Shown piece by piece: positions 6,241 to 37,860 of a stretch of 53,222 bases of DNA. The notes beneath the pieces are model-generated. The model did not search any database, was not told the DNA's origin, and saw only the letters and a program-made list of their open reading frames with translations. Both the position numbers and the translations under genes were made by a program. Positions within the stretch are counted from its first letter, which is position 1; each line of letters opens with the position of its first letter. The stretch is from positions 1 through 53,222 of IMG/VR virus record IMGVR_UViG_3300014501_000024; one strand, 5' to 3'. This stretch comes from a virus. Lineage: Duplodnaviria; Caudoviricetes.

Positions 6241-6404
6241 CGGTCCTGGCTTTCGGGTTGCATGGGTGGGTTCTCATAGTCGGAGATCGCTTGGTTCATA
6301 TCGCTGATCGCCGCCGCTCGCGGGTTATAAAATTGCCCGCGGATCAGGCCAATCACCAAAATGGCCGCGATCACCCACAGAATAAGTTTCGTGCTATTTT
6401 CCAT
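6237..6404 (-). CDS. small single-TM membrane protein (55 aa)
   Basis: MENSTKLILWVIAAILVIGLIRG..., GGGAG RBS, stop overlaps the next ATG; below the ORF-track cutoff. Confidence 0.55.
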   Translation of the reverse strand: MENSTKLILWVIAAILVIGLIRGQFYNPRAAAISDMNQAISDYENPPMQPESQDR

Positions 6405-6431
6405 GCTCTCCCAGCCCTCACTACGTAATAA

Positions 6432-7877: not shown

Positions 7878-7905
7878 AGTGTTGTTTACTTCCGTAGTAA
7901 ATGTT

Positions 7906-8021
7906 AAGGATGCTCGATAAACACAGGGAAAACTCCCTATGCTTGTGGAGCATCCTTGCGTGTAGGTGTGACTACACGCGCGGAAATATTAAGCTCTTGC
8001 GAGTCGCTTGCTAGGCGACTC
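7906..8021 (-). promoter_or_regulatory. tandem stem-loops in the early-operon leader
   Basis: AAGGATGCTC/GAGCATCCTT (7906-7957), GCGTGTAG/CTACACGC (7958-7979), GAGTCGC/GCGACTC (8001-8021). Confidence 0.5.
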
Positions 8022-14820: not shown

Positions 14821-16251
14821 TCAGGTCCAACCCCCCGCATTGACGGGCGCGCGGTTCACTATCCTGGGCCGGTCCCTGAGTATGACCCGCCCTGTGATGT
14901 TCGCGCTCACTCCCAGACACAGATATTCCAGGGCGTCCGCTAGATCGCTCCAAGGGTGTAATTTCTCGGGTGTGTCCTCAAGCTGGCCGTTCCTGAGTTT
15001 GCGGTAGCGATACTTGTTGCCCATCGCGTGGATCAGCGTGGGGCACCCGGTGCGCGAGATCTGGAGCGCGGGCTCGCCCATCACATTGGACCGCAGCTGT
15101 TTCTCCACCGCGGCGATGCGCGGCGCGATCGCGTTGGTGTTCGCCGGGTAGGCAAGCAACCCCGCCTCTTTGAGCGCGTCGAACGCATTGCGCTCGCTGA
15201 GCTGGGACCGCTGGTTGCCGGCCGGGTCCGCCACCACGAACGAGCGCTTGCCGGCGTAGGGCTCGCCCAAGAGCTTGGGCTTGAGGTACTCGACCAGGAA
15301 CTGATCCAGTCCCACATCCTCGCCGCAGACTTCTTCGAACACCAGCAGGCGCCCGAGGCTGTCCACCTGGCCGATCAGCGCCGTGGGCGTGCGTCCCAGA
15401 TCCAGGCCGACCATGATCGGCCGCATCGGGTTCACCACCACCTCCATGTCGCGGACGTGGGTGGGCACGTGGAAGCTGCGCCTGAACACCGCTTGACCTG
15501 CGTTGGAGGTGCCCCATTGGCTCTCCACATGCACGGCCGACCACTCCTCATCATGTACGGTCGACCGATCCTCATCGCCGCCGTTCATGAGGTTTTCGTA
15601 GTAGTTGGGTGGCAGGTTCGCGAGGTTCTCGGCGTCTGGGCCGACCGCCGAGGGTTGGTGAAACAGCTTCCAGTTTGCACGAGGGTTCAGCACGAAGCGT
15701 TCGTGGTAAGGGCTGTCAGTGTCCCACGGGTTGGTATCTGCGATCAGACCAAACCACGACGGACCGCCCTGGAGCTTGGACGGATAGCGTCCAAGCCGTC
15801 CGATCAACGGCGGGATGATGCCGATCGGCACCTCGCGGATCTCGTTCACCCAGGCGCCGGTGAGCTGCATGGAGAGCAACCGGCGTTGATCCTCGACGGT
15901 GTCCAGCGGGATCATCACCCAGTCGCTATGCACGATCGAGCCGTCGCTCAAAGGGGCGCGTATGCGTATGGTGCTGTCGGTTACGAAGTAGCTGATCATT
16001 GGCTGGAGATATTGCTGCACGTCTGTCAGCACGGTGGTGCGCAGTTGCTGGAGCGTGTTCCTGACGATAGTAAATCGGGAGTAGCGGATGTTGGTGCCCG
16101 TGGCGGGCGCTTGCTGGGTGGACCGGCGGAAGATCTCCATGATGGAGCCCATGGATTTTCCCGACCCGACCGGTCCGACCAGACATCGGACCAGGCTGTC
16201 GTCCATCATGAAAAGTTCTATTGTCGGAGGGGGGCGGTACACTAAAGTCAT
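14821..16251 (-). CDS. terL: terminase large subunit
   Basis: Walker A GPVGSGKS, Walker B AWVNE, DTNP coupling motif, nuclease GLDLG...DPAG...SDLADALEY. Confidence 0.93.
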
Positions 16252-21463: not shown

Positions 21464-21730
21464 ATGAGCATTAACCTTGGTTCGCCCGCCATCGACGCGA
21501 TCGGTCAGATCCGCAATTCGGAGTCGTGGCCGATCATCATGACCGCGATGGAGGAGTGCGCCAGAAACAAGCTCCATGCTGCGCTGGAAAGCTCGGTGTC
21601 TGACCGGGTGGATGCGACCGCTTACGCCCGTGCCGTCCATGATGTGTTCGTGGCGCTGGCGGCTGCTAGCCAGCGGGTCAATCCCCGCGCGATCGGCAAG
21701 CTCACCGCCAAGCAGCTGGCTGACGCATGA
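21464..21730 (+). CDS. hypothetical protein preceding the scaffold
   Basis: ORF track; position typical of head operons. Confidence 0.65.
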   Translation: MSINLGSPAIDAIGQIRNSESWPIIMTAMEECARNKLHAALESSVSDRVDATAYARAVHDVFVALAAASQRVNPRAIGKLTAKQLADA

Positions 21731-22764
21731 GCCAGAGCAATCAGATCGACTTCGGGCCGTTCCTTCCCGACGCGGTGCGTCGTGCCGGCAAACTGGCCGA
21801 CGATCTGATGCGTGAGCAGCAAGAGCCACCGGTAGAACCGGGTTTACAACCGGGTGCTACCCCGGCCCCCGCTCCCGCCAACCAGGACCAGCCGCCCCAG
21901 GATCAAAGCCAGGAACAACCGCAGCTTCAGCTTGAGGCTCCGCAGGTTCAAGAGGCTCCGCAGGAAGACTGGAAGCAGCGCTACCTCTCGCTCCAGGGCA
22001 AATACAACACCGAGGTGCCGAACCTAACCGGCCAGCTGCGGGTCTTGGAGGGTCAGGTTGGGCAGCTGCAAAACCTGCTATCGCAGGTGCGTCAGCAGCC
22101 GCTACCCCAACAGCAGTCTTCACCGCGCACGGCTCCGCGTGAGGTGCCGAAGGAAGACGTCGATGCCTACGGCGAGGATCTGGTGGTTGCCGCCCGGCGT
22201 TGGGCGCGGGCCGAGATCGAGCCTGAGATCGCCCAGTTGCGCGGCGAGATCACCAATCTGAGTTCGCGCTCCCAGCAGACCGCCACCACGTTGGCGCAGC
22301 GCACGGTCGAGCAGGTGCTCGACGCCGAGGTGCCGAACTGGAATATAGTGAACAACGAGCCGGCGTTCGTGGCCTGGCTCGCGCAGCCAGACCCATTCTC
22401 TGGGCGTGTCCGTCATGACATGCTCACCGAAGCCTACTCCGGTGGCGATGGTCGCCGGACGGCCGCTTTCTTTCGCGCCTATCAGAACGAGCAGACCGTT
22501 GTAAACCAGCCCCCCAGGAACCCGCTCCATACCGAGTCTTCGGACCCGACGGATCGCATTTCCTTGGTGGATCTGGCCGCTCCCGGCCGTGGCAATATGC
22601 CATCCGGTAGTAATGGCGCTCCTGAGAAACGCATCTGGTCCACGGACCAAATCGCCGCGTTCTACAGGGACAAGCAACGAGGAAAGTTCGCCGGGCGCGA
22701 GGTGGAAGCCGCACGCCTGGAAGCTGACTTTTTCGCAGCTCAGACCGAAGGGCGCATACGCTGA
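21727..22764 (+). CDS. capsid scaffolding protein
   Basis: WKQRYLSLQGKYNTEVP coiled coil; C-terminal AQTEGRIR; immediately upstream of the capsid gene. Confidence 0.75.
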   Translation: MSQSNQIDFGPFLPDAVRRAGKLADDLMREQQEPPVEPGLQPGATPAPAPANQDQPPQDQSQEQPQLQLEAPQVQEAPQEDWKQRYLSLQGKYNTEVPNLTGQLRVLEGQVGQLQNLLSQVRQQPLPQQQSSPRTAPREVPKEDVDAYGEDLVVAARRWARAEIEPEIAQLRGEITNLSSRSQQTATTLAQRTVEQVLDAEVPNWNIVNNEPAFVAWLAQPDPFSGRVRHDMLTEAYSGGDGRRTAAFFRAYQNEQTVVNQPPRNPLHTESSDPTDRISLVDLAAPGRGNMPSGSNGAPEKRIWSTDQIAAFYRDKQRGKFAGREVEAARLEADFFAAQTEGRIR

Positions 22765-22817: not shown

Positions 22818-23765
22818 ATGCCCATTACAGTCGCTACGACCCCGTATGGTGGCGCTGGTACCAGTGCCACTCCGCCTTATAGTGGGATATTTATCCCGCA
22901 GATCTGGTCCGGCAAACTGATCGAGAAGTTCTACAACGCCACGGTCCTCGCCGCGATCGCCAACACCGACTATGAAGGTGAGATCAAGAACTTCGGCGAC
23001 ACGGTCAATATCCGCACCAAGCCCACCATCACCATTCTGCCCTATCAGGTGGATATGCCCTTGGTGGTCAACCGGCCCAGCTCGAACCTGGTGCAGCTCA
23101 CCATCAATAACGCCAACTACTTCAACGAAGTGTTGGACGACATCATGGAGATGCAGTCTGACATCAACATGTTGAGCATGTGGGCTGACGACGCCACCGA
23201 GCAGATGAAGATCACCATCGACACGGCTGTGTTGGCGACGCTGGATCCTGGCGTGGTGGCACAGAATAAGGGTCTCACCGCCGGCAGGATTTCGGGTGAC
23301 ATCAATCTCGGCACCACGGGTTCGCCGGTGGCGCTTACCTCGACGGGCGTGTTGGACACCATTGTCGACCTCGGCACGGTGCTGGACGAGCAGAATATCC
23401 CCGAGACTGGGCGTTGGCTGGTTATCCCGCCCTGGTGCGCCGGCTTGATCAAGAAGTCAGACCTGACCAATGCGAGCATCTCAGGCGACGGTGTGAGCAT
23501 GTTGCGTAATGGCCGGATCGGCATGATTGATCGGTTTACCTTGTACAGCTCGAACCTTCTGCCCACCGCCGTCGAGGGCACGCAGAACGCCTTTCGGATG
23601 TTTGCCGGCCACCCGCACGGCCTGACTTTCGCCAGTCAGATCACCAAGCTCGAAACCATCCGCTCCGAGCAGACTTTCGGCACTTTGCTCCGTGGTCTTC
23701 AGGTCTACGGCAACAAGGTGCTCGACGGCATCGCGATCGCCGAGCTTTACGCCGTCAAGGGCTAA
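22818..23765 (+). CDS. major capsid protein
   Basis: FIPQIWSGKL...NTDYEGEI..GDTVNI...RGLQVYG, typical podoviral coat protein. Confidence 0.88.
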   Translation: MPITVATTPYGGAGTSATPPYSGIFIPQIWSGKLIEKFYNATVLAAIANTDYEGEIKNFGDTVNIRTKPTITILPYQVDMPLVVNRPSSNLVQLTINNANYFNEVLDDIMEMQSDINMLSMWADDATEQMKITIDTAVLATLDPGVVAQNKGLTAGRISGDINLGTTGSPVALTSTGVLDTIVDLGTVLDEQNIPETGRWLVIPPWCAGLIKKSDLTNASISGDGVSMLRNGRIGMIDRFTLYSSNLLPTAVEGTQNAFRMFAGHPHGLTFASQITKLETIRSEQTFGTLLRGLQVYGNKVLDGIAIAELYAVKG

Positions 23766-23788: not shown

Positions 23789-24574
23789 ATGTCCGCCACT
23801 TTGAACCTCACTGGGCTTCCCACCACACGTACCATCGGTGGGGTTGTCGCCGAGGCGCGTGTGCTGCTCAGTGATATCGAACCGGATACCAGTGCAACTC
23901 CAGGGTCAAGCTGGTCCGGCACGATGGTGGCACCTGGGCATACGCTGGGCGCGCTTGTGCTGGAGGTGCGCGGTCTCATCGCCGATGTGATCGACGTCGT
24001 GGATGGCTCGCTCAGGTATGCCGACGCGGATCTGTATTTGTATGTGTCGGACGCGCTGAGCGTGATCCGTCGCACACGGCCGGATCTGTTTTTCAACCTG
24101 CCCTCAGGTGGCGTGCCGGTCTACACCGCGGCCAACGCCGCTACGCCGTTTCCGATCACGGACGGGTTCTGGCCCGCCGTGGTGAGTTTCGTGGCTGCGA
24201 CCGCCGAGATGCGCGATGACACCTGGGCGCAGGCGGGCAAGGGTCCCACGCTGCTTAAGGAGTTCGCGGCGGGATTACCGACGCCGCCGTGGCGCTACTC
24301 GGATGCGATGCTCTACGCCTATGCCAGCGATGCGCTGGTGCATGCCCGTCGGCTCAGACCGGACATGTTTCTCGGCTACGGGTTGCGCGGCATGGTCCTG
24401 CCCGCCTACCAGCCCGTCACCGACGCGCTGACATTGTTTCCGCTCGATGACCGCTACTACCCATCGTTCGTCCTCTACGTCGTGGGCATGGCCCTCGCGC
24501 GCAACTCAGAACTCAAACCCGAGGTCGGCGCGTCACTCTATCTGACGATGTTCGACCAGCAGCTCAGCACATGA
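23789..24574 (+). CDS. head-tail adaptor-like protein with nested domain duplication
   Basis: two copies each of (A)RxLLxD and RYxDAxL...DAL...RRxRPDxF. Confidence 0.65.
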   Translation: MSATLNLTGLPTTRTIGGVVAEARVLLSDIEPDTSATPGSSWSGTMVAPGHTLGALVLEVRGLIADVIDVVDGSLRYADADLYLYVSDALSVIRRTRPDLFFNLPSGGVPVYTAANAATPFPITDGFWPAVVSFVAATAEMRDDTWAQAGKGPTLLKEFAAGLPTPPWRYSDAMLYAYASDALVHARRLRPDMFLGYGLRGMVLPAYQPVTDALTLFPLDDRYYPSFVLYVVGMALARNSELKPEVGASLYLTMFDQQLST

Positions 24575-25413
24575 GCGACGCCGCAACCACGCTACAGGCT
24601 GGCGGGCTTGATCGGATCTACGACGGGATCGAAAGCGTCCTGCCCGGCGTCATGCACACGGTCGTGCAGATGGCGCTGTTTGATACGATCGAAGAATTTT
24701 GCATGCGCTCGACCTATTGGCGCGGCCTGTTTGCGTGGTCCATGGAGCCGGGCCAGACCACGCTCGATCTCAACCCGCCCGGCGCCAGCCCGCTGGTGCG
24801 CTGGGTGCTGGAGGTGCGCGGCCTGCGCTGTCACCGGATCGCGCCCACGGCGGTGCTGATCGACACCAGCGGCACGCTTGACACCAGTGTTGCGCGTTCG
24901 GGTACGGTCTGGGCGGCTTGCACGCCCACTCAGTTGGAAAACCTGCCGGATTGGATCAACGACTGGACCGAGGGTTTGCGCGCCGGTGCGTTGTTCCGGC
25001 TCTACTCACACCCGAAGAAACCCTACTCGGATGCGCGGCAAGCGCCCTCCTACGGCAAGCTGTTTCGTTCGCAGATCCAACTCGCCAAGGTCGAGGCGCA
25101 AAAGCTCTGCTCCCGCGACGCCTGGCACTTCCCGTATTTCGCGCGGGGCCGCGAGGGGTTCTGGGGCGGCTGGGGTCGAGGCTGGGGCGATGTGTGCTGC
25201 GGGCCTGATGGCCAGGTGCTGGACACACGCAGCGGGCTCAGCGGGGCTGCCTACACGCTCAGTGCCATCACGCTGACGTTCCCAACCGTGCCCGAGGCAA
25301 CCGCCAGTGCCGACGAGACGATCACCATCACCAACACCGGCACGGTGCCCCTGGTCATTACGGGCACGATGGTGACGGGCGATTTCGCCCTGACCGGTCT
25401 GACGCTTCCCTAA
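24571..25413 (+). CDS. tail tubular/adaptor protein with a C-terminal half Ig-like (ASH) domain
   Basis: IEEFCxRS..WR and GALxRL..P.KPYSD motifs; ends TITITNTGTVPLVI...GDFALTGLTLP. Confidence 0.7.
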   Translation: MSDAATTLQAGGLDRIYDGIESVLPGVMHTVVQMALFDTIEEFCMRSTYWRGLFAWSMEPGQTTLDLNPPGASPLVRWVLEVRGLRCHRIAPTAVLIDTSGTLDTSVARSGTVWAACTPTQLENLPDWINDWTEGLRAGALFRLYSHPKKPYSDARQAPSYGKLFRSQIQLAKVEAQKLCSRDAWHFPYFARGREGFWGGWGRGWGDVCCGPDGQVLDTRSGLSGAAYTLSAITLTFPTVPEATASADETITITNTGTVPLVITGTMVTGDFALTGLTLP

Positions 25414-25431
25414 ACCCGAAAGGTTCCGCTC

Positions 25432-25866
25432 ATGGCAAACGTCGTCTATCCGACCTATAAAACGGTCGCTATCAGTCCCGGCCTGGATCTCGTCACCGCC
25501 TCGACTCTCAAGGTGTGTCTGGTCAGCACAACCACGGGGGTGACCAACTATGTCTACCTGGCCACGCATCAGTTTTTCAGCTCGGTGCCGGCGGCGAGTA
25601 TTCTGGCTCCCGGCGTTGCGCTGACGGGCAAAGCGGCGGCCAACGGCGCACTGACCGCATCCTCGGTCGTGTTGCCATCGGTGCCCGCACCCACCGGTGC
25701 GAACGCGGCGGCTACCGGTCAGGCACTGGTGTTTTATAACGACACCGGCACCGCCGCCACGTCGCAGCTGGTCGCCTACATGGATACTGAGACCGGGCTA
25801 CCCGTCACACCGAACGGGGCGAACATCACCATAAACTTCTCGGGTGCTGTGCTGACGTTGAGCTAA
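25432..25866 (+). CDS. virion structural (tail-associated) protein
   Basis: MANVVY...DTG..ATS.LVAY.D..TGLPVTPNG.NITI pattern. Confidence 0.65.
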   Translation: MANVVYPTYKTVAISPGLDLVTASTLKVCLVSTTTGVTNYVYLATHQFFSSVPAASILAPGVALTGKAAANGALTASSVVLPSVPAPTGANAAATGQALVFYNDTGTAATSQLVAYMDTETGLPVTPNGANITINFSGAVLTLS

Positions 25867-25882
25867 CGCTCGGGAGCCGTTC

Positions 25883-26833
25883 ATGGTCCAACAATTCGCC
25901 GACCGCGCGAAGATGACGACGCCGACGACCGGCACCGGAACAATCACGCTCGGCTCGGCGGTCACTGGGTTTCAAACTTTCGCTGCGGCTGGGATTACCA
26001 CCGGCAGCACCGTCCGCTACGTCATAGAGGATTTGCCGAACTGGGAAATCGGCCTCGGCACATACACCGCGTCTGGGACTACGCTTTCGCGTGGGCCGTT
26101 GGAGAGCAACAACGCCGGCGCTGCGATCAGCCTGTCGGGATCGGCCATTGTCTATGTCACGGCGGCGGCGGCGGATATCAATTTGGGTTCGCCGCCGCCG
26201 GTTGGTGTCAACGTGGCCGCCGCCGGCTATTTCACCACGCTGTTCGGCTATGCCAGTCTGACCGTCGGGACTCCGATCGCGGCGGGTGCCACGGCGACGC
26301 TTAATTCAGCGGCGGCTCAGTACCGGCTGATATCATATCAAACCGCCAGCTCGACGCGCTGGCAGATGGGCGTTTCCAACACCGCTGAGAGCGGCGCCAA
26401 CGTTGGGTCGGATTTCTCGATCTCGGCGTTCTCGGATGCTGGCGCCTATCTGTACGCGCCCATTAGCATCGTGCGATCGACTGGCGCGGTGACCTTCGGT
26501 GGGTCTTCGACGGCGGCTGCGGGTGCGTTCGAGACTGCGATCGTCGTGCCGGCGATGGTGATTGATCTGAACACCGGCTCGCTTTTTAGTAAGACGATTG
26601 CCGCTGCCACTACCTTCACCATCGCCAATACCCCGCCCTCGGGTGTGGCTGCTTCGTTCCTGCTGCAACTCACCAACGGCGGCGCTTTCACCACCACCTG
26701 GTGGAGCGGCATCAAATGGCCTGGCGGCACTCCGCCAACGCTCTCTACGTCCGGGGTCGATGTGCTCGGGTTCTACACGGCGAACGCTGGCACGACTTGG
26801 TATGGGTTCCTCATGGGGAAGGGGATGGCCTGA
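25883..26833 (+). CDS. tail fibre-like protein
   Basis: DRAK.TT.TTGTGTITLG.AV.GFQTF N-terminus; ESGANVGSDF segment; IKWPGGTPPTL C-terminal domain. Confidence 0.7.
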   Translation: MVQQFADRAKMTTPTTGTGTITLGSAVTGFQTFAAAGITTGSTVRYVIEDLPNWEIGLGTYTASGTTLSRGPLESNNAGAAISLSGSAIVYVTAAAADINLGSPPPVGVNVAAAGYFTTLFGYASLTVGTPIAAGATATLNSAAAQYRLISYQTASSTRWQMGVSNTAESGANVGSDFSISAFSDAGAYLYAPISIVRSTGAVTFGGSSTAAAGAFETAIVVPAMVIDLNTGSLFSKTIAAATTFTIANTPPSGVAASFLLQLTNGGAFTTTWWSGIKWPGGTPPTLSTSGVDVLGFYTANAGTTWYGFLMGKGMA

Positions 26834-27747
26834 TGACTGTGCGCGCGCTGGTTATGGCGGCGGCGGGTGTGAGCACAGCGGTGGTAATGCCTACCACCTG
26901 GACTGCGCGCACGCTGCCGGCCAGCCAAAACTGGTATGGTGTCGCCGGGAGCGGCAGCAACTTTGTCGCGGTGGCTGTGGGCAGCGCTACCGCGGCCTAT
27001 TCGAGTGACGGCGGCCACACCTGGGCCGCGTCGACGCTGCCGAGCAATCAAAGTTGGTTTGGTGCCGCCGGGAGCGGCAGCAACTTTGTCGCGGTGGTTG
27101 GGGGTGGCACCGCCGCGGCCTATTCGAGTGACGGCGGCCACACCTGGGCCGCGTCGACGCTGCCGAGCAGCCAGAGTTGGTATACGGCCGCCGGGAGCGG
27201 CAGCAATTTCGTCACGGTCGGTAACTCCAGTGCCGCCGCCGCCTACAGCACCAATGGCGGCCAGACGTGGAGCGCGTCGACGCTGCCGGCCAATGCGAGT
27301 TGGTATAGCGTCGCCGGATCCGGCAGCAATTTCGTCGCAGTGGCAGGAAGCACCAACGTCGCCGCCTACAGCACCAATGGCGGCCAGACGTGGAGCGCGT
27401 CGACGCTGCCGAGCAGCCAGACTTGGTATGGTGTCGCCGGGAGCGGCAGCAACTTTGTCGCGGTGGCTGAAGGTGGCACCGCCGCGGCCTATTCGAGTGA
27501 CGGCGGCCACACCTGGGCCGCGTCGACGCTGCCGAGCAGCGGGAACTGGAACGGCGTCGCCGGGAGCGGCAGCAATTTCGTGGCTGTATGTGGCGCCACC
27601 ACCGTCGCCGCCTACAGCACCAATGGCGGCCAGACGTGGAGCGCGTCGACGCTGCCGAGCAGCCAGACTTGGTACACGGCCGCCGGGAGCGGCAGCAATT
27701 TCGTCACGGTCGGTTACAACAGCGCCGTCGCGGCAACGTCGCCCTGA
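26833..27747 (+). CDS. 7-repeat Asp-box/BNR beta-propeller protein (putative receptor-binding)
   Basis: seven 41-aa repeats linked by S(S/T)(D/N)GGxTW Asp-boxes. Confidence 0.75.
   Translation: MTVRALVMAAAGVSTAVVMPTTWTARTLPASQNWYGVAGSGSNFVAVAVGSATAAYSSDGGHTWAASTLPSNQSWFGAAGSGSNFVAVVGGGTAAAYSSDGGHTWAASTLPSSQSWYTAAGSGSNFVTVGNSSAAAAYSTNGGQTWSASTLPANASWYSVAGSGSNFVAVAGSTNVAAYSTNGGQTWSASTLPSSQTWYGVAGSGSNFVAVAEGGTAAAYSSDGGHTWAASTLPSSGNWNGVAGSGSNFVAVCGATTVAAYSTNGGQTWSASTLPSSQTWYTAAGSGSNFVTVGYNSAVAATSP
26896..27744 (+). repeat. 123-bp coding tandem repeat, ~7 copies
   Basis: TCGAGTGACGGCGGCCACACC at 27001 and 27124; near-identical units. Confidence 0.9.
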
Positions 27748-30245
27748 TGCTCGGTTTTTCACCACTCGCCGGAGCACCGCTCGCCGCACTTCCAGCAGCG
27801 GGAGTCGCTCAGGTAGTCACCGCAGCGCCCCTAACTGCGACGTTCGCGCTGGGCACGCTGAGCGGTGTGTTCAACCCGCAGAGCGTAGTTGCCGCGCCGC
27901 TGACTGCGACGTTCACACTGGGCACGCTGAGCGGTGTGTTCAACCCGCAGAGTGTAATTGCTGCGTCGGAAACTGCAACCTTCGCGTTGGGCACGGTGTC
28001 GGTCACGCAAGTGGCCACCAACACGATCACTGCTGCGTCTTTGGTGGCGACGTTCGCGCTGGGCACATTGTCGCTCGCCTACGATCAAAGCCTCAGTGTT
28101 TCAGGGCTGACCAGCGTGTATGCGCTGGGCAGCCTGTCCCTTACCCAAATCGCGGGTCAGACTCTCACAGTCTCGGCGCCTGGCGTCGCTGCGACCTTTG
28201 GGCTGGGCGCGATGTCGCTTGCCTACAATCAGCCGATCACTGTTGGATCGTCGGTCACTGCCACGTTTGCGCTTGGCGCGGTGTCGCTGTTCCAGGGCCA
28301 GTCCATCACCGCATCGCCTCTCATCGCGACTTTCGCGCTGGGCACGGCGGCCCTTTCTTACGTCCAGTCGGTTCTTACTACCGGAGTGTCGGCGACGTTC
28401 GCACCCGGTGCGGCTACGGTGGTCGAGCCTGTGAACCAGACCCTCACTGTCGCAGCGCCCGTGACTGCGACCTTCGCGCTGGGCGGGGCAACGATTTCCA
28501 CGTTGGGCGTGAATATTATTGCAGTGGCAGCGCCCGCAGTGGCGACGTTTGGTTTAGGTCCAATCTCGCTCAGCTACGCCCGAAGCCTCACCATATCAGC
28601 ACCCACGACCGCGACGTTCGCGCCGGGTGCAGTGTCGGTAGTAGCACTGGGCGTGATCGCGATCACGGTGGCCGCACCTGTGACCGCCATGTTCGTGCTC
28701 ACTCCGGATATCAAGCTCGGCTATAACCAAAACGTGGTCGCGGCGGGGGCTGTGGCCACCTTCGTTCCTGGACCTGGCATCACGGTTGGGTTTGGGCTGC
28801 CGCAAACGATCTCGGTGGTCACTGGGTTTGATCTCAGTTTTAGCCCGAGTTCCCAGATCGTCGTGCAGGCGAATTTCTTGGTGTGCGCGCTGACGATCCC
28901 GCCCGGCGGCTCGGCGACGTTCAATGTGGTGTTCACGCCGACGGCGCCGGGTGTACGCACGGGCGTTTTGAGTTTCACCTCGAATGCGACGCCGGGGGCA
29001 ATCGCACTATCTGGCACCGGTGCCGCGGCGGTGGTGCCGGTTGGCAATCAAATCCTCACCGTGACGGGGGCTACGGCGACTTTCGCGATCGCTCCTACCG
29101 CCGTCGGAACCCTCTTGCGTCTCAGCACGGCTGGCAACCAGATCGTGGATAGCACGGGCGCCAACGTGAGGCTCAGATCCATCAACTGGTTTGGGGCCGA
29201 GGGCACGAACTTCACGCCTGATGGCATCTGGGGGCGTGGCTACCAGAGCATCCTGAACCAGATACAGGCGCTCGGGTTTAATTGCATAAGGCTGCCTTTC
29301 GCGGATGACATCTTAACTCAGACGCCTCTCAGCATCGACTATGTGGTCAACGCGGATCTTGTCGGTCTGAACTCGTTGCAGGTGCTGGACAAGATCATCG
29401 CTTATGGTGGAAGCCTCGGGCTTTACTTCGTGCTAGATCATCACAGGTGTTCGGCCACCACCGGCTCGGGCACCGATGGCTGGCCAGCAGCGGGTTGGGT
29501 CGGCGCTTACACGCAAGCCAACTGGCTGGCCATGTGGACCACCATGGCGACTCGGTATGCTTCCAACAAAGCTGTTCTTGGTATGGACCCTCACAATGAG
29601 CCGTACAACATCGCTTGGACCGACTGGGTGTCGGGCGTCGCCACACTCGCCAATGCGATCCATGCCATTGCGCCGGATTGGCTGGTGTTCTGCGAGGGTG
29701 TCGGCCTGGTAGGCTATACCGGTGGATCACCTGGGTACTGGTGGGGTGGCAACCTTTCGGGTGTGGCGAGTATGCCGCTTGTGCTGACCACGCCGAACAA
29801 GGTGGTCTACTCGCCACACGAATATGGGCTCAGTGCGAACGCACAACCATGGCTGGAAAGCACCACCAACACCGTCGCGGGTTGGCCGAGTTCGCTCGGA
29901 CCCGTCTGGGAGTTCGCCTGGAGCTACATCTTCCGCGAAGCCATTGCGCCGATCTGGGTCGGCGAGTTCGGCGGGAAGTTTGGCTTTACGGGCAGCGGTG
30001 CGGTGGACTCGACGCAGCTCAGCGCGAGCTACGAGGTGACCTGGCTAGACACGCTGATCCAGGCACTCAACGGCGACCCTGACCTGACTGGGACCAAGGT
30101 CATCGCGGGCGCCCAGAAGGGCATGAGCTATAGCTACTGGGCGCTGAACCCGGACTCGGCTGATACAGGCGGATTGTTGGAGGATGACTGGTTGACGGTG
30201 CAGCCTGGCAAGCTTGCGCTGCTTGAGCCGTTGCTGACGGCCTAA
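27747..30245 (+). CDS. virion-associated endoglucanase: ATFALG repeat stalk + GH5 catalytic domain
   Basis: TGATG coupling, MLGFSPLA start; INWFG, IRLPF, LDHH, HNEP (acid/base), WWGGNL, YSPHEY, GEFGG (nucleophile), W.LNPDS.DTGG. Confidence 0.9.
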   Translation: MLGFSPLAGAPLAALPAAGVAQVVTAAPLTATFALGTLSGVFNPQSVVAAPLTATFTLGTLSGVFNPQSVIAASETATFALGTVSVTQVATNTITAASLVATFALGTLSLAYDQSLSVSGLTSVYALGSLSLTQIAGQTLTVSAPGVAATFGLGAMSLAYNQPITVGSSVTATFALGAVSLFQGQSITASPLIATFALGTAALSYVQSVLTTGVSATFAPGAATVVEPVNQTLTVAAPVTATFALGGATISTLGVNIIAVAAPAVATFGLGPISLSYARSLTISAPTTATFAPGAVSVVALGVIAITVAAPVTAMFVLTPDIKLGYNQNVVAAGAVATFVPGPGITVGFGLPQTISVVTGFDLSFSPSSQIVVQANFLVCALTIPPGGSATFNVVFTPTAPGVRTGVLSFTSNATPGAIALSGTGAAAVVPVGNQILTVTGATATFAIAPTAVGTLLRLSTAGNQIVDSTGANVRLRSINWFGAEGTNFTPDGIWGRGYQSILNQIQALGFNCIRLPFADDILTQTPLSIDYVVNADLVGLNSLQVLDKIIAYGGSLGLYFVLDHHRCSATTGSGTDGWPAAGWVGAYTQANWLAMWTTMATRYASNKAVLGMDPHNEPYNIAWTDWVSGVATLANAIHAIAPDWLVFCEGVGLVGYTGGSPGYWWGGNLSGVASMPLVLTTPNKVVYSPHEYGLSANAQPWLESTTNTVAGWPSSLGPVWEFAWSYIFREAIAPIWVGEFGGKFGFTGSGAVDSTQLSASYEVTWLDTLIQALNGDPDLTGTKVIAGAQKGMSYSYWALNPDSADTGGLLEDDWLTVQPGKLALLEPLLTA

Positions 30246-30246
30246 C

Positions 30247-30262
30247 TTTATTACGTAATAAA
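30247..30262. promoter_or_regulatory. perfect palindrome TTTATTACGTAATAAA between the GH5 and GH48 genes
   Basis: same 14-bp core at 14806-14819. Confidence 0.6.
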
Positions 30263-30275
30263 AAGGCGAAGCCCC

Positions 30276-32660
30276 ATGGCACAGTTCGCCACGTTCACGA
30301 TCACGCTGGGCACGGCGTCGGAGCAGACCTGCTCGGTGGACTATACCACGGTGAACGAAACGGCGGTGGCGCCTACAGATTTCACTGCTGAGAGCGGCAC
30401 GCTGGTGTTTCCACCCGGAACGGTTTCGCAACCCGTCGTGGTGAATATATTGGCCGATACCACATTGAACGTCGCCAAATCGTTTGAGCTGCTGCTGTCC
30501 AATCCGGTGAACTGCATCCTGCCCACGATGCCATACAATAATTGCGTGATCTCGACTGCCACGGCTGAGATACCGACTTACCTTAGCCGGTTCAACTGGA
30601 TCTACGGGCAGCTCAAAAACACTGCGAATGGTTTCTTTGGCCCGGCGACTGGACCCAAGGCGTTCCAGATGCCCTATCATTGCAAGGAGCCGCTGATTGC
30701 CGAGGCGCCCGACTGGGGTCATGAAAGTGTGTCTGAGACAATCTCTTACTGGGTGAAGCTGGAAGCTTGGGAAATTGCGATGAATGCCAACACGTCGGGC
30801 TATAGCGCCGCGTGGGCGAGCATCGAAGACAATTACATTCCGACCCCGGAGTTTCAGCCGTGGACCAGCTACACGCCGGGCAGCCCTGCCACCTACACGC
30901 CGGATGGGGCCGATCCTTCCAGCTATCCAACGCTTGCCAATGCCGCGGTTGTGTCCGGTGTTGACCCGCTTGCCACGCTCCTACAGACAACCTACGGCAC
31001 GCTGAACATATACGGGATGCACTGGCTCTGGGACGTCGATGGCGTGTTCGGGTTTCATAATGCCGACGCCACGACTGTCGCGGTGGCGATCAACAATTTT
31101 GGGAGAGGGCGTCACGAGGGATTGTTCGATACGGTCACGCATGTTGGCTGGGAGGATTGGACCCAGGGCGGTTCATCAGATGGCGGCTTCCTGCCGATCT
31201 ATCAGCAGGGACTACCGACTTATCCGGCGGCTGAATACGACTACGCGAAACAATTCTCCTACACGACCGCGCCCGATGCCGAGGTGCGAACCATCGGCGC
31301 GGCATGGCTCGCGCATAAATTCGCCGCTGCGCAAAATCTCTCGACCGCAAACCAGGACACCAAGGCGCAGAAGCTGGGTGACTATCTGCGTTATTGTCTT
31401 TACGACAAGTACTTCCGACCAATTCCGGGGTATGACGCATCGGGAGCGCACAATCTGATCTCATGGTTTAGCGCGTTCGGCGGGGCAATTCCGTCCGATA
31501 GCGCCACCAGTGATTTCGGCTTTCGTATTGGCTCGTCGGCCAGTCACTTCGGCTATAACGGCGTGGATACAGCCTACGCCTTGGGCATGTCGACGAGCGG
31601 GCTTTCGCCCACAACCGCGGGTGCGGCGGCACAATGGCAGGCCAGCCTGTCGCGTCAGTTGGAAATGCTGCGTTGGCTGCAAAGCCCGGAGGGGCCTATT
31701 GCCGGGGGCGTAACAAATTCCTGGGAAGGAATTTACGCGACCCCAACCGATGGCAGGCAAAACTTTACGTTCTACGGTCTATATTATGACTACTCACCGG
31801 TGTATGCCGAGCCGCCAAGCAATAACTGGGTTGGGTATCAGGGTTGGGGCTTGGAGCGGGTCGCTGCACTCTATCTGGCGACCGTTCTCAAGAGCGACAT
31901 TTTCAGCGTGGGCATCTGCGCCAATTGCAAGGTGATCCTGGATCACTTCGTGCCATGGCTGCTGACGAATGTCACGGTTACGGCTGGCGTGATCTCAATG
32001 CCGCTGACGCTCAACTGGGTGTCGGCCACGCAGGTGGCGGGTCAGACCACGAATGTCACCAATCTCGACGGCACGTTTGAATATCTGCCAAGCCTCAAAT
32101 GGGACAGTACGGGCAATTACACGGCGTTCTGGGCTGTCGGCGCGGTGCCGAACCCCAACCTCCATTGCTCGATCGTTGCCACGGGCATCTCAGTGGGCAT
32201 CGCCGCCAGCTTCGCTCAGCTGCTTATCGAGTACGCCGAGGCGCACCGCACCGCACCGGGCGGCGCATTGACCGACACGATCCCGAACAGCACCTACACC
32301 GTGATGCAGTGCTTCACGCTTGCCAAAGCTCTGATGGATGCAATCTGGGGCTTGGCTGATGCGGTTGGCTTCACCGTGCCGGAAACGCGCGGCGATTATG
32401 TCGGCTACAACAAAGTCACCTACATCCCGCCCGGCTTCACCGGCTCGATGCCGAACGGCAACGCGCTGGCAAACGGCACCACGACGTTCATCTCGGCCAG
32501 GACATTCATGGAAGCCGACCCGGAGTGGCCGAAGGTTTCCGCCTTCCTCGCCGGCGGCGCCGCGCCAGTGTTCAGCTATCACCGGTTCTGGGAACAGACG
32601 GAATGTGCGGCCGGCTTTGCCATGCTGCATCAATATTTCAGCGACTTGGGAACAGCCTGA
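30276..32660 (+). CDS. Calx-beta domain + glycoside hydrolase family 48 cellulase
   Basis: N-terminal VDYTT...TA...DF....GTLVF (Calx-beta); PYH..E.L..EAPDWGHE..SE..SYW, YTTAPDAE, WLQS.EG.IAGG.TNSW, PPSNNW, YHRFW. Confidence 0.9.
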   Translation: MAQFATFTITLGTASEQTCSVDYTTVNETAVAPTDFTAESGTLVFPPGTVSQPVVVNILADTTLNVAKSFELLLSNPVNCILPTMPYNNCVISTATAEIPTYLSRFNWIYGQLKNTANGFFGPATGPKAFQMPYHCKEPLIAEAPDWGHESVSETISYWVKLEAWEIAMNANTSGYSAAWASIEDNYIPTPEFQPWTSYTPGSPATYTPDGADPSSYPTLANAAVVSGVDPLATLLQTTYGTLNIYGMHWLWDVDGVFGFHNADATTVAVAINNFGRGRHEGLFDTVTHVGWEDWTQGGSSDGGFLPIYQQGLPTYPAAEYDYAKQFSYTTAPDAEVRTIGAAWLAHKFAAAQNLSTANQDTKAQKLGDYLRYCLYDKYFRPIPGYDASGAHNLISWFSAFGGAIPSDSATSDFGFRIGSSASHFGYNGVDTAYALGMSTSGLSPTTAGAAAQWQASLSRQLEMLRWLQSPEGPIAGGVTNSWEGIYATPTDGRQNFTFYGLYYDYSPVYAEPPSNNWVGYQGWGLERVAALYLATVLKSDIFSVGICANCKVILDHFVPWLLTNVTVTAGVISMPLTLNWVSATQVAGQTTNVTNLDGTFEYLPSLKWDSTGNYTAFWAVGAVPNPNLHCSIVATGISVGIAASFAQLLIEYAEAHRTAPGGALTDTIPNSTYTVMQCFTLAKALMDAIWGLADAVGFTVPETRGDYVGYNKVTYIPPGFTGSMPNGNALANGTTTFISARTFMEADPEWPKVSAFLAGGAAPVFSYHRFWEQTECAAGFAMLHQYFSDLGTA

Positions 32661-32661
32661 T

Positions 32662-35172
32662 ATGGGCGGTTGGGCGGTCACCAATATGGGCGGGGAGATC
32701 CCGCTCAAGGACGAGCGGTTGCTGCCTGACAATCAGGCCACTGCGGCCTGGAACGTGGACCTGAACTCGGGACGCCTGGAAGGGCTACCGACGCTTGAGC
32801 TGGTCCAGGATATGACTCTGGTGCCTGGCCTGGTGAACAAAGCCTATCGGTTTCCCGGTCCGACCGTGGGTGTGGATCCTGATTATTGGCTACCCTTGCG
32901 CTCCACGTTCGCGAGCGTGGTCCGGTCGCCTCTGGCCAATGACACCCTGCATCGAATTTACTGGACCGAAAGCGACGGCACCGGCGCGTTTTGGAACACC
33001 TATGCGCGCTTCGTGGCGGGATTGCCGAATTACACGCTCGGGTTCCTGCCGGTCGAAAGTTACTGGATCCCCACGGTGGTCACCGCTGATGGCACGATCC
33101 CGATGGAGATCCCGAACTCGGTGGCGGTGTCGGCACCTGGCGCTGGCTATACACCTGGTACTGTGGTCATGGCCTCGGGGGGTGCCCTCGGGGTTGGCCA
33201 GGGTGTCACCCAGGTGCTCATCACGCAGACGCAGGTGGCGTCGATCGTGATTGCCCAAGGCGGCAGTGGCGGCACCGACGGTCAGGCGCTGATCTACGGC
33301 ACCACCGGCCAAGGTCGACGTTGGAGTGGCACCGGGACGATCTTGGGCGGCGTGCTGACCGCGGTGACCCTGACTGACCCCGGTGAGTATAATCAGAACC
33401 CGGTCTTGGGCGATGATCCGATCGCGGTGAACACTTCTACCTATCCACAGGGACCGGCAGTTACTACCAGCACGCCTACGCCTGCCTATCTGGCCAATCT
33501 GGCGGGTATTGTCTTGGAGGCCCCGACGTATTTGGGCGTCCCCATTACGACGTTAGCCCAAGCAGAGGCTGCTTACCCGGCAGTCTCATCACAGCTTATA
33601 ACCACGACCACACCGGGCAGTTTGGTCGGACCCGGTGTTGGCCTGACCGGTGCGGCGGTGAGTGTGACCATGGGCATACTCGACGTGTCGCTCCAATTCG
33701 CCGGAGCCTATCTCACCGCGCCGACCAACCCCGTTCCAGTGACCAATTACCCCGGCGGCAGCGGCAGCGGCGGATCGGTCACCCTGACCACGGCGATCAG
33801 CACCGACGTGCCCGAAGTCGAGCGGTCCTATATTTTCACCTACGTGGACGAGTATGGCGAGGAGAGTTCCCCCTCGGTCCCATCAGCCGTGGTCGCGGGG
33901 GCCTCGGACGGCACCTGGACCGTGTTCGGGTTGTCCAACGTCGCGCCGACGGCGCCGGCCGGCACGGTCTATCCGACCGTCGTAAAAATCCGCATCTATC
34001 GCACGATCACCGGCGCCACCACCGGCGGGAATTTCTACCAGGTGGCCGAGGTCGCGCTCCCGTTCGCGGCAAACCCCTCAGTGGGCTGGGTGGACACAAC
34101 CCCTGACTCGGCTATCACCGGCAACAACACGCTTCAGACCGCCTCCTGGGCCCCGCCTGTCGCGGGCCTGGACGGGCTGACCACGCTGCCAGGGGGTATG
34201 CTGGTCGGTTTCACCGGCAACACGTTGCATTTCTGCGAGCCGGACTATCCGCACACCTGGCCGGCGTCGTATGACATCTCGGCCCAATATCAAATTGTCG
34301 GTCTGGGCGTCTGGCAGTCCAATCTCGTGGTGCTCACGGCGGGATACCCGCTGACCGGTTCAGGCACCGCGCCCGCGAGCTACATCTTAACCCAGGTGCA
34401 AGTCGCTGAGCCGTGCATCGCGCGTGGCAGTATTCTCACGGACTTGCTTGGGGTTTACTATGCCAGTCCGAACGGTTTGGTGATGCTGAACTATTACGGG
34501 ATGAGCAATCAGACCCAGGCGATGATCACGCGCAATCAGTGGATCACCGAGTACAACGCCAAGGGTTTGATCGCTTGCCGGCACCGGTCGCAATATCTCG
34601 CATTGAACGGTTTGGGCACGGGTATCCTCATCGACTTCGCCGAGGGGCGCCGCGGCGTGGTCGAGCTGAACACGTTCGACAATGCCGATTGCATGTGGAA
34701 CGACGTCTACGCTGGCGACGTCTATGTCCTTGCCAACAAGATGGTCTATCGGTGGGATAGTCCAAACACTGGCCCGATGATCTGGCGTTGGCGCTCCAAG
34801 CGTTGGTCCGGCACCGAGCCGCTCTCGCTGGGCGCTTGCCAGATCACGCTGACCTCGGCGGTGACGAACCCACCCACCTACCCACCTTACGTCAATATCG
34901 GACCCGGCGTGATCAGCGATAGCGTGAGTGTGCCCGTCGTCACGACGCCCGTCGTCCCGACGATTGTTCTGCCTGCTGGGGTCAATGCCACGTTCCAGCT
35001 CTGGGCCAACGATCTATATTCTGTGATTACGCGCAATCTGCTCGAAGAAATCGAAATCTTCCGGCTGCCGTCCGGCTTCAAGAGCTTCGACTGGCAGTTT
35101 GAGCTGATTTCGTGCGTGCCCATCTTGAAGGTCGAGTTGGCGTCAACCATGGAGGAGCTGAAGAAGCTATGA
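32662..35172 (+). CDS. tail tubular/nozzle (stabilisation) protein
   Basis: GEIP...RLLP...A..A.N start; RSY..T.V..YGEES.PS; FCEP.YPH.WP; YASPNGLV; WRWRSK. Confidence 0.75.
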   Translation: MGGWAVTNMGGEIPLKDERLLPDNQATAAWNVDLNSGRLEGLPTLELVQDMTLVPGLVNKAYRFPGPTVGVDPDYWLPLRSTFASVVRSPLANDTLHRIYWTESDGTGAFWNTYARFVAGLPNYTLGFLPVESYWIPTVVTADGTIPMEIPNSVAVSAPGAGYTPGTVVMASGGALGVGQGVTQVLITQTQVASIVIAQGGSGGTDGQALIYGTTGQGRRWSGTGTILGGVLTAVTLTDPGEYNQNPVLGDDPIAVNTSTYPQGPAVTTSTPTPAYLANLAGIVLEAPTYLGVPITTLAQAEAAYPAVSSQLITTTTPGSLVGPGVGLTGAAVSVTMGILDVSLQFAGAYLTAPTNPVPVTNYPGGSGSGGSVTLTTAISTDVPEVERSYIFTYVDEYGEESSPSVPSAVVAGASDGTWTVFGLSNVAPTAPAGTVYPTVVKIRIYRTITGATTGGNFYQVAEVALPFAANPSVGWVDTTPDSAITGNNTLQTASWAPPVAGLDGLTTLPGGMLVGFTGNTLHFCEPDYPHTWPASYDISAQYQIVGLGVWQSNLVVLTAGYPLTGSGTAPASYILTQVQVAEPCIARGSILTDLLGVYYASPNGLVMLNYYGMSNQTQAMITRNQWITEYNAKGLIACRHRSQYLALNGLGTGILIDFAEGRRGVVELNTFDNADCMWNDVYAGDVYVLANKMVYRWDSPNTGPMIWRWRSKRWSGTEPLSLGACQITLTSAVTNPPTYPPYVNIGPGVISDSVSVPVVTTPVVPTIVLPAGVNATFQLWANDLYSVITRNLLEEIEIFRLPSGFKSFDWQFELISCVPILKVELASTMEELKKL

Positions 35173-36688: not shown

Positions 36689-36854
36689 ATCCTTCGCACC
36701 GAGCATACCGGATTATTCACCGATCGTCGTGGTGGCAACTCAGGATGCCACCAAAGAGGTCAATAGTCTGACTGATTGTAAAACACGCATCATCCCCGAT
36801 GCCTACGCGCCGGATGTGGCGAGCGGAACGATCGGAGCCACCGAAAATGGGTAA
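36681..36854 (+). pseudogene. chimeric duplicate of the next gene's 5' end
   Basis: MGKSFAPSIPDYSPI vs MGKSSAPSTPDYSPI; DNA duplication. Confidence 0.5.
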
Positions 36855-37860
36855 ATCTTCGGCACCGAGCACACCGGATTATTCACCGATCGCTTCGGCT
36901 GACGCTGCGGCGGCGACGCAGGACGCCAATACCGAAGCCAGCAGCCTGGCATTCGCCAAGCAGCAATACGCCGCCGAGGAACCGACCACGCAGGCGTATG
37001 TGCAGTCGATGACGGCGAACTCGAACGCGCAGACCGCTGACGCGACGGCTGACCAGAACCGGTATACGTCGGTCTACGAGCCGATGCAGAACACGTTCAA
37101 TGCCGAAGCCTCGAACTACAACTCGCCCGCGATGGCATCACAGGCATCCGGCGCCGCCGAGGCGGACGTGGGTTCGCAGTTCAACCAGCAGCGCGCCAGC
37201 TCGTTGTCGAGCCTGGAGAGCTACGGCATCGACCCGAGCCAGACCCGCTACGGGGCGCTGGATCTGGGCACCCGCGTGAGCCAGGCGGCAGCGACCGCGG
37301 CGGCAGGCACCCAGTCACGACTCAATACCCAGCAAACCGGCATGAACTTGCAATCCCAGGCCATCGCGCAGGGCGCCAACCTGCCGGGTCAGGCGCAAGC
37401 TGCCTATAGCGGGGCCTCCAGTTCGGGCGGTGCCGGTGTCCAATCTGGCCTGAACACGTCCAACACCTACGGCAATCTCATGGGCACGGCGTCGCAGTGG
37501 GCTGGCAACCAGAGCAGTGCGCTGGGCGGCCAGACTTCGGCGTTGGGTGCTGGGTTCAACAACGCGGCCACGGCGGCCACCATCAACAACCAGAACACCT
37601 CCAATGAAATGTCGGGCGTCGGCAGTCTCATCGGCGGTGTCGGCATGCTGGCGCTTTCCGATCGCCGGTTGAAGCAAGATATCCACAAGGTGGGCGCGCT
37701 CAAATCGGGCGTGCCGCTCTACACGTTTCGCTACAAGGGTGACAATACCGGCGCGCTGCGCATGGGCGTCATGGCGCAGGAGCTGCGTAAATCCCAGCCC
37801 GGCGCGGTAGTGCAAATGCCCTCGGGCTATCTCGCGGTTGACTACGGGATGGTCAAATAA
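36847..37860 (+). CDS. internal virion (ejection) protein with C-terminal peptidase S74-like domain
   Basis: Ala/Gln/Ser-rich body; SDRRLKQDI...LYTFRY...GVMAQEL...VDY. Confidence 0.75.
   Translation: MGKSSAPSTPDYSPIASADAAAATQDANTEASSLAFAKQQYAAEEPTTQAYVQSMTANSNAQTADATADQNRYTSVYEPMQNTFNAEASNYNSPAMASQASGAAEADVGSQFNQQRASSLSSLESYGIDPSQTRYGALDLGTRVSQAAATAAAGTQSRLNTQQTGMNLQSQAIAQGANLPGQAQAAYSGASSSGGAGVQSGLNTSNTYGNLMGTASQWAGNQSSALGGQTSALGAGFNNAATAATINNQNTSNEMSGVGSLIGGVGMLALSDRRLKQDIHKVGALKSGVPLYTFRYKGDNTGALRMGVMAQELRKSQPGAVVQMPSGYLAVDYGMVK

Follow-up and report, generated by a model that had tools for sequence, protein, structure and literature searches.

Biofilms of soil and plant-associated bacteria commonly have a cellulose matrix, and Erwinia phage S6 (vB_EamP-S6, Schitoviridae) is the sole phage that has been tied to a cellulose receptor and also carries its own cellulases. 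According to a commentary on the S6 work (PMC9544554), infection requires host cellulose and depends on the bcs genes, and the glycoside hydrolase family 5 (GH5) protein gp095 degrades carboxymethylcellulose; the same text gives the function of the family 48 (GH48) protein gp094 as a prediction. The gp095/gp094 pair, its domains and its catalytic residues are already part of that publication, in which E155 is named as the proton donor of gp094. Two further reports connect cellulose synthesis genes with phage infection, one for a subset of Klebsiella phages (PMC13412088) and the other for a Vibrio phage (PMC11792527). Here we describe a viral contig of 53,222 bases (IMG/VR record IMGVR_UViG_3300014501_000024, analysed over its whole length and hereafter called the window), which carries, in its tail module and on the same strand, a GH5 gene followed by a GH48 gene led by a Calx-beta domain, the order seen in S6. 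The window adds a new phage lineage, and probably a new host class, to those with an S6-type cellulase cassette. A preliminary description made from the letters of the window alone knew of no characterised phage GH48; gp094 is a published homologue, and the statement holds in the narrow sense that the commentary presents gp094 as predicted and not as assayed. Full-text literature searches on phage GH48 gave the S6 commentary as the sole relevant paper, judged from the listings, and no other phage GH48 in print within the library searched.

The two genes lie on the plus strand at 27747-30245 (GH5) and 30276-32660 (GH48), exactly as the preliminary description had placed them, and the GH48 gene starts 30 nucleotides past the end of the GH5 gene. 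The GH5 gene encodes a protein of 832 residues with a repeat stalk, an immunoglobulin-like (Ig-like) domain and a GH5 catalytic domain (29145-30155). The last of these matches PF00150 at E 7.3e-36 and 124.5 bits (cut-off 23.5) between residues 467 and 803, over profile positions 1-271 of 272, and the closest solved relatives are the endo-beta-1,4-glucanases CelE2 (8fc0, E 3.6e-84) and Acidothermus E1 (1ece, E 4.7e-74). The acid/base E618 (HNEP; 29598-29600) and the nucleophile E740 (GEFGG; 29964-29966) align with the HNEP and GEFG motifs of E1 and CelE2 and with E570 and E689 of S6 gp095. R515, H566, N617, E618, H691, Y693, E740 and W798, which we take to be the canonical GH5 residue set, are invariant in all 16 aligned phage GH5 proteins. 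The sequence thereby points to an endoglucanase-type enzyme with intact catalytic residues, and its predicted substrate is cellulose.

The GH48 protein has 794 residues, and its catalytic domain (30579-32639) matches PF02011 at E 4.2e-169 and 564 bits (cut-off 25), in two stretches that cover profile positions 1-463 and 444-619 (E 3.2e-133 and 2.1e-37, respectively). It matches 14 solved GH48 structures, the best being 4fus (E 1.6e-120); the names of these structures are cellulase-type, bare family names or generic, and none of them names another substrate. The score against the NCBIfam equivalog CbhB, 473 bits, is far under the cut-off of 1950, which places the protein outside that equivalog. 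The closest named GH48 is that of a Roseomonas metagenome-assembled genome (MAG), with 54% identity. E143 (30702-30704), the acid E154 within GHESVSE (30735-30737) and the base candidate D334 within APDAE (31275-31277) are invariant in 45 of 45 phage-type sequences, and E154 aligns with E155 of S6 gp094; in Cel48F numbering the catalytic acid and base of the family are presumably E55 and D230. The Calx-beta domain occupies residues 4-78 (30285-30509; PF03160, E 7.7e-11, 42.5 bits against a cut-off of 27) and also matches Na/Ca exchanger structures at E 5e-6. The catalytic motifs that had been read from the letters, namely the NEP and GEFGG glutamates of GH5 and the GHExxSE acid and APDA base of GH48 behind a Calx-beta domain, are therefore all in place. 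In a Pfam scan (E <= 0.01), the GH5 protein returned Cellulase, ASH and Cep192_D4 only and the GH48 protein Glyco_hydro_48 and Calx-beta only, with no carbohydrate-binding module (CBM), cohesin or dockerin family in either. Inspection by eye agrees with the earlier reading that neither protein has an obvious signal peptide: a K/R n-region is absent from the N-terminus of the GH5 protein, and the Calx-beta domain begins at residue 4 of the GH48 protein, that is, at the protein start. On a separate matter of numbering, the gp094 base is given as D331 in PMC9544554; the GenBank translation has N at position 331 and the APDAE aspartate at position 334.

The likeness to S6 extends over both proteins. 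In S6, gp095 (GH5) and gp094 (Calx-beta plus GH48) are adjacent on one strand; gp094 is 44% identical to the window GH48 over 100% of the length, with the Calx-beta domain likewise N-terminal, and gp095 is 45% identical to the window GH5 over residues 452-830, with an Ig-like (choice-of-anchor D) domain preceding GH5 in both. The two phages differ in that S6 is an N4-like phage of 74.7 kb, whereas the window has an RHph_TM27-like, podovirus-type backbone; in that the N-terminal half of gp095 is unrelated to that of the window protein, the matches beginning only at residue 452; and in that the host of S6 is a gammaproteobacterium, whereas that of the window is likely alphaproteobacterial.

Viral databases had been suggested as a place to look for further GH48 genes, and such genes were found there, in 17 Erwinia phage records and at 14 IMG/VR loci. 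In a tblastn search of 50,697 phage records the GH48 protein matched 30; the 17 that cover at least 80% of the protein are all Erwinia phages (44-47% identity) and include S6, phiEaP8, Kuerle, the Fifi phages and the 147-149-kb Hena1 and pEp_SNUABM_01/55/56. The remaining 13 match the Calx-beta domain alone, at the start of a Pavtokvirus-type podovirus tail protein. The GH5 protein matched 34 phage records, each from about residue 362-458 through to the C-terminal end. Hena1 and pEp_SNUABM_01 (myoviruses), the N4-like phiEaP8, Kuerle and Fifi phages, and prophage-like loci of Azotobacter beijerinckii, Azorhizophilus paspali, Rhodoblastus acidophilus and a Segnochrobactraceae bacterium all present the order GH5, then no gene or one gene, then Calx-beta-GH48, at 44-53% identity; they differ from the window in virion type and in the N-terminal anchor of GH5, and several have an extra Calx-beta-led protein. 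The Pavtokvirus-type podoviruses (Erwinia PEp14, Pavtok and Stean; Serratia Parlo; Klebsiella SopranoGao, LASTA, SJM3 and ZX1) share with the window a tail-module GH5 'cellulase' (43-47%) and a tail protein led by a Calx-beta domain 38-48% identical to that of the window, but they are without GH48, and their Calx-beta domain heads another protein of about 960 residues.

IMG/VR was searched with a GH48 alignment as the query, a single GH48 protein having returned no relative. Of the resulting 14 loci with a phage-type GH48, 4 represent Erwinia phages already known, and L017 duplicates L019. A GH5 catalytic domain is encoded upstream on the same strand in 14 of 14; in 9 it lies directly next to the GH48 gene, in the other 5 one gene intervenes, and in 4 of those 5 the intervening gene is also Calx-beta-led. 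In a collection of 5.8 billion proteins, 96 clusters score 615-1427 bits after the window's own GH48, and 89 of these carry PF02011 plus PF03160 at about 800 residues; the following row drops to 469 bits, where cellular enzymes with CBM2, CBM3 or Fn3 modules begin. We also searched GTDB, with one genome per species; among the best 80 of 132 matches, 5 GH48 proteins are phage-type, and the other 75 are cellular, at 34-39% identity. The five carriers are Azorhizophilus paspali, Azotobacter beijerinckii, Rhodoblastus acidophilus, a Segnochrobactraceae bacterium and a Solirubrobacteraceae MAG, and GH5 lies upstream in all four of the loci that could be assessed. The Rhodoblastus and Segnochrobactraceae loci share the nozzle-like and acyltransferase genes of the window, and the Rhodoblastus locus also has a homologue of 36799-37860, from which it follows that the phage lineage of the window occurs in Hyphomicrobiales genomes. 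In the fifth locus, that of the Solirubrobacteraceae MAG (L022, 5-3985), the GH48 domain is fused to an N-terminal part of about 640 residues that is assigned to no family, and the start of the gene coincides with the end of the contig. A different fusion was seen in the protein cluster P0050 (1326 residues), which joins GH5, GH48 and an Ig-like domain and is without Calx-beta.

Cellular GH48 cellobiohydrolases are secreted enzymes. Those of Hahella chejuensis (4fus), Caldicellulosiruptor and Clostridium (Cel48F, CelS) and the CBM2-GH48 enzymes of actinomycetes share with the window protein the full catalytic domain (35-42% identity) and the acid/base positions; they differ by their CBM2 or CBM3, Fn3 or dockerin modules, and the bit scores fall from at least 615 for phage-type proteins to at most 469 for the cellular ones. 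In a tree of 60 rows hand-picked from the clusters and loci (50 phage-type and 10 cellular, the root being assumed on the cellular side), a branch with a Shimodaira-Hasegawa-like approximate likelihood ratio test (SH-aLRT) support of 100 splits phage-type from cellular GH48. The window groups with the metagenomic proteins P0003-P0007 (78-61% identity), and the Erwinia phages are scattered, a placement we offer as description only. Pairwise identities of GH5 and of GH48 correlate over 16 loci (r 0.49, a value reached by 5 of 5000 permutations), yet some pairs are discordant (L009/L018, for example, at 71% for GH5 and 44% for GH48); the two genes thus mostly travel together and can be re-paired. 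Judged from gene order and homology, GH5 plus GH48 is a widespread mobile tail cassette that occurs on at least four phage backbones. The window itself is one added example, and the wider pattern is the more interesting result: beyond the Erwinia phages the cassette extends to about 90 protein clusters and several backbones, in phages or prophages of Alpha- and Gammaproteobacteria, and it offers a sequence marker for predicting cellulose-dependent phages. As far as our literature searches reach, the phage-type GH48 branch, the mobile cassette, the recurring N-terminal Calx-beta domain and the association with Bcs described below are not in print.

How the two proteins might be held on the virion is suggested by their N-terminal parts. 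The stalk of the GH5 protein (residues 28-360, 27828-28826), noticed in the preliminary description as an ATFALG repeat, is real and repeats a unit of about 23 residues (ATFALGxxSL...) about 14 times: a motif scan gave 12 sites at a spacing of 22-25 residues, with two double-length gaps that each hold a degenerate copy. Tandem Repeats Finder saw merely 2.5 copies of a 69-nucleotide unit in the stalk DNA (27825-27995), so that the repeat is visible mainly in the protein. The stalk has zero sequence matches in the PDB. Its look-alikes in the ESM Atlas are viral clusters with scores of 0.90-0.91, which we regard as leads only. Chain-like 'rope plus fibre-dimer' fibres are known for the podophages GP4 and A1002 (PMC13730344). 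The 23-residue repeat stalk and a neighbouring 144-residue protein recall these rope fibres, with no sequence match so far, and by this analogy the stalk might be a 'rope' of the GP4/A1002 kind, onto which fibre dimers of about 140 residues dock. Behind the stalk, a choice-of-anchor D or ASH-type Ig-like domain (residues 357-425, 28815-29021) matches NF012200 at E 1.3e-6 over residues 357-415, below the cut-off, and ASH and Cep192_D4 weakly; these two families each match 12 of the 16 aligned phage GH5 proteins.

The GH5 proteins of three related podovirus loci (L008, L011 and L015) have PF23148, 'Podophage GP4 fiber-tail adaptor gp77', at their N-terminus, with E-values of 1e-10 to 2e-15 and scores over the cut-off; Ig-like domains come next and GH5 after them. 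The comparison with GP4-type podophage tails (8jov; Gp77) is a partial one for the window, whose gene downstream of the cassette matches an 8jov chain and whose GH5, unlike those of the related loci, is without Gp77. The L008 protein (4490-7570) combines the Gp77 adaptor, Ig-like and GH5 domains with a C-terminal alginate lyase (PF08787, E 8.4e-27), and from this domain content the L008 appendage is apparently aimed at two exopolysaccharides.

The GH48 architecture of about 800 residues is constant across N4-like phages, large phages of myovirus size, Azotobacter prophage-like loci and the podovirus lineage of the window, whereas the GH5 N-terminus varies with the phage backbone. A Calx-beta domain also heads all 6 of the other tail-module proteins tested in related phages, one of which has collagen repeats. 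Taken together, the constant GH48, the backbone-specific GH5 N-terminus and the recurrent leading Calx-beta suggest that it is through Calx-beta that such proteins dock to a conserved partner, and its most likely role, on this comparative evidence, would be as the docking module of GH48 on the tail or on the GH5 appendage. The phage proteins match no CBM family and the cellular GH48s retrieved here have CBM2 or CBM3, which fits enzymes held at their substrate by the virion; as compact enzymes without carbohydrate-binding modules, the phage-type GH48s should also be useful in enzymology. In a paper on Erwinia phage Key, Calx-beta is among the domains joined to tailspike depolymerases (PMC10194208). 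Extra Calx-beta-led tail-module proteins were seen at L010 8132-9988, L008 7563-9905, L011 3639-5603 and L015 7841-9991 and 12421-15525; apart from the collagen repeats in one, they have otherwise no Pfam family match, and they may be further depolymerases that use the same N-terminal module.

Considering these data together, we think it likely that the window encodes tail-borne cellulases acting on cellulose made by the host. The reading draws on the enzyme families, the intact catalytic residues, the position in the structural module, the precedent of S6, the conserved pairing, the tail adaptor of the relatives and the Bcs genes in carrier genomes, and a role against bacterial cellulose, as first proposed from the letters, is the best supported of those we weighed. 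The GH5 protein would be a tail appendage that is tied to the tail by a lineage-specific N-terminal part, here the 14-unit stalk, and its C-terminal endo-beta-1,4-glucanase would cut cellulose chains internally; the GH48 protein would act as a processive, reducing-end-directed cellulase that removes chains. Both enzymes would bind and digest cellulose secreted through the Bcs system of the host, and cellulose would be both the first receptor and a barrier that is cleared to let the phage get to the outer membrane, as proposed for S6. The arrangement shares with the cellulosome the idea of an endoglucanase and a processive GH48 on one scaffold; the scaffold here would be a phage tail, and since Pfam reports no cohesin or dockerin family in either protein, the 'mini-cellulosome' of the preliminary description survives as a metaphor only.

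The link to Bcs was assessed in the five GTDB carrier genomes, four of which have a BcsA over the TIGR03030 cut-off with BcsB adjoining. Among other genomes sampled from the two classes, BcsA exceeds the cut-off in 11 of 200 and 8 of 200, and a Fisher test of 4/5 against 11/200 gives p = 9e-5. The association is supportive, short of decisive.

A more specific proposal concerns movement. According to two papers, a cellular GH48 moves from the reducing towards the non-reducing end (PMC7443863), and the reducing end of bacterial cellulose leaves the cell first while the chain is elongated at its non-reducing end in BcsA (PMC8892547); from the direction of the enzyme and the polarity of export, a tethered GH48 would travel towards the cell. 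The virion-bound GH48 could then be a one-way winch that threads a chain end, possibly made fresh by the neighbouring GH5, and pulls the phage processively towards the outer-membrane Bcs pore, with Calx-beta as a portable plug for GH48 and other enzymes on the GH5 appendage. Docking of this kind would explain why the GH48 of about 800 residues stays constant as the GH5 N-terminus changes with each virion type. We consider this winch possible but doubtful; if true, a processive glycosidase would give the virion directional movement towards the cell.

Several observations weigh against tail-borne cellulases. The Bcs association is based on five genomes only, two of the Azotobacter group and two of the Rhizobiales; BcsA and BcsB were not found in the fifth, the Solirubrobacteraceae MAG, whose 12.8-kb contig with the GH48 gene may be mis-binned; and the base-rate samples include incomplete genomes, which lowers the base rate. 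The stalk has one relative among the 5.8 billion proteins (P0123, 45% identity), the Gp77 adaptor domain was not found in the window GH5 protein, and the GH48 protein is without a recognisable virion-anchoring domain apart from Calx-beta. Finally, the GH5 family is polyspecific, and insect GH48s act on chitin.

The anchoring points raise the question of whether the enzymes are virion proteins at all. They might instead be made as soluble proteins in the infected cell and freed at lysis, when they would loosen the cellulose matrix of the biofilm and let progeny out to neighbouring cells; release by lysis would require no signal peptide, the GH48 protein has just the Calx-beta part of about 95 residues besides its catalytic domain, and PHROGs has no annotated structural family over the GH48 domain. 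Set against this, the genes lie inside the structural operon, tightly packed among tail genes, the GH5 protein has a stalk of 360 residues, three relatives carry a tail adaptor domain derived from a solved structure, and the GH48 domain of L022 is fused to its long N-terminal part. The need of S6 for cellulose (PMC9544554) concerns infection itself, beyond spread. On balance we regard soluble enzymes as unlikely.

The breadth of GH5 specificities and the chitin-active insect enzymes bear on the substrate: the proteins could be tail-borne depolymerases for another glycan, be it a beta-glucan exopolysaccharide, mixed-linkage or otherwise, or a polymer akin to chitin, and the alginate lyase domain in the L008 GH5 protein implies that appendages of this kind can be directed at more than one polymer. 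Among solved GH5s, however, the nearest are endo-beta-1,4-glucanases, the names of the matched GH48 structures are cellulase-type, family or generic, and four of the five carrier genomes encode BcsA with BcsB; carboxymethylcellulose is cleaved by the S6 homologue, and S6 itself depends on bcs genes (PMC9544554). A substrate other than cellulose therefore seems improbable to us. That the pair are auxiliary metabolic genes helping the host feed on plant cellulose in soil strikes us as very improbable: the sole run holding the contig is labelled permafrost metagenome, a soil rich in plant matter, but a secretion signal is absent by eye and a CBM family is absent, the genes sit in the tail module and not among early or metabolic genes, and the fully supported branch sets phage-type GH48s apart from the 10 cellular cellulolytic ones. 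To our knowledge, there are no cellulolytic specialists among the named carriers (Azotobacter, Rhodoblastus and the Erwinia phages).

Tail-borne cellulases also presuppose that the cassette belongs to the phage, and the backbone of the window bears this out. Its closest isolated phages are four Rhizobium phages (RHph_TM27A/B, TM29 and TM3_14A), with 53.1% identity for the portal and 58.9% for the capsid, the next best phages reaching 26% and 34%. When 29 window proteins were compared with RHph_TM27A by tblastn, homologues were found on both sides of the cassette: on the left the terminase (43%), portal (53%), scaffold (35%) and capsid (59%), and on the right the product of 32662-35172 (30-34%, EVB29_090), the acyltransferase (35%), the next gene (38%), a giant protein (27%) and a primase-like protein (28%). 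RHph_TM27A gave zero tblastn matches for 23789-32660, and with its flanks collinear the cassette thus lies in a variable tail region of a coherent phage backbone. Contigs from another assembler and the same run span 27685-27878 and 29903-34764 with zero differences and an even depth of 7-9.5. Collinear flanks and independent bridging contigs make a chimera at the cassette very unlikely and answer the reservation, raised at the outset, that the contig might be chimeric at this point. An assembly artefact that joined bacterial cellulase genes to a phage contig, for which one could cite the metagenomic origin and a slight dip in guanine plus cytosine (GC) content at the GH48 gene (0.58 for 30001-32000, with about 0.62-0.65 in the surroundings), is of negligible probability in view of these flanks and contigs and of the same module in the same place in related phage loci.

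The host of the window phage is, as far as the backbone tells, probably an alphaproteobacterium. The earlier hint at acetic acid bacteria lacks specific support, as the nearest phages infect Rhizobium and the backbone relatives are in Rhodoblastus and Segnochrobactraceae genomes. The record is assigned to the linear class, with an estimated completeness of 84% and a GC content of about 62%. No RNA run is listed as containing the stretch, and the sole DNA run is probably the source sample.

The structural block comprises the terminase (14821-16251, minus strand), the portal (18094-20349), a scaffold-like protein (21727-22764) and the major capsid protein (22818-23765), after which the virion proteins come next. 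Upstream of the cassette lie, on the plus strand, genes for a tail accessory protein of 144 residues (25432-25866; phrog_644, E 4.6e-24; PDB 9d93 'Tail wing arm, gp31', E 7.2e-11), whose homologue in L024 is encoded directly upstream of the GH5 gene, for a tail fibre/spike-like protein of 316 residues (25883-26833; E 2.6e-11 to 7.3e-10 against PHROG families of tail spikes and tail fibres) and for a BNR/Asp-box protein of 304 residues (26833-27747; Pfam BNR, E 1.6e-14; PDB Ycf48-like 5ojr, E 6.1e-9). The BNR protein consists of about 7 near-identical Asp-box units of about 38 residues (YSSDGGHTW...GSGSNFVAV), is Ycf48-like by sequence and may be a receptor-binding or glycan-binding head. One base is shared between its start and the stop of the fibre gene (TGATG) and one between its stop and the start of GH5, an arrangement that suggests translational coupling. 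Two open reading frames (ORFs) in this region, 26936-28726 and 27588-30245 (from an upstream ATG), were dropped as out-of-frame or over-extended readings in GC-rich DNA.

Downstream, 32662-35172 (plus strand) encodes a virion-associated, nozzle-like tail protein (PDB 8jov_A 'Virion-associated phage protein', E 1.4e-48, 6 chains; phrog_511, E 1.7e-82). We take 8jov to be a GP4 entry; a literature search for 8JOV gave nothing relevant, nor did one for RHph_TM27A bring up anything useful. 'Nozzle' is a plausible name for the product on these matches. The cassette had been placed between the tail fibre and nozzle genes: it does lie in the tail module, with the BNR gene separating the fibre gene from GH5 and with the 'nozzle' label no firmer than plausible. 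Promoter-like and terminator-like sites show no excess inside the tail block.

At the end of the structural block, the nozzle-like gene is followed by an acyltransferase, two large proteins and a protein of 2375 residues. The last (40643-47770, plus strand) has an LPD39 domain (E 3.3e-8), resembles in its C-terminal third PHROG families annotated as DarB-like antirestriction (E 5.8e-32), is a homologue (27%) of a 2307-residue protein of RHph_TM27A and is probably an ejected polyvalent protein. An ORF of 329 residues at 6888-7877 (minus strand) has zero PHROG or Pfam family matches; GC content is 0.50 at 6001-8000 against about 0.6-0.65 elsewhere, and the ORF is possibly a recently acquired gene. 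At the far end, 50145-53216 (minus strand) encodes a primase/helicase-like protein of 1023 residues (DUF927; phrog_8841) that is homologous (28%) to an RHph_TM27A gene labelled 'putative integrase', an annotation that looks doubtful.

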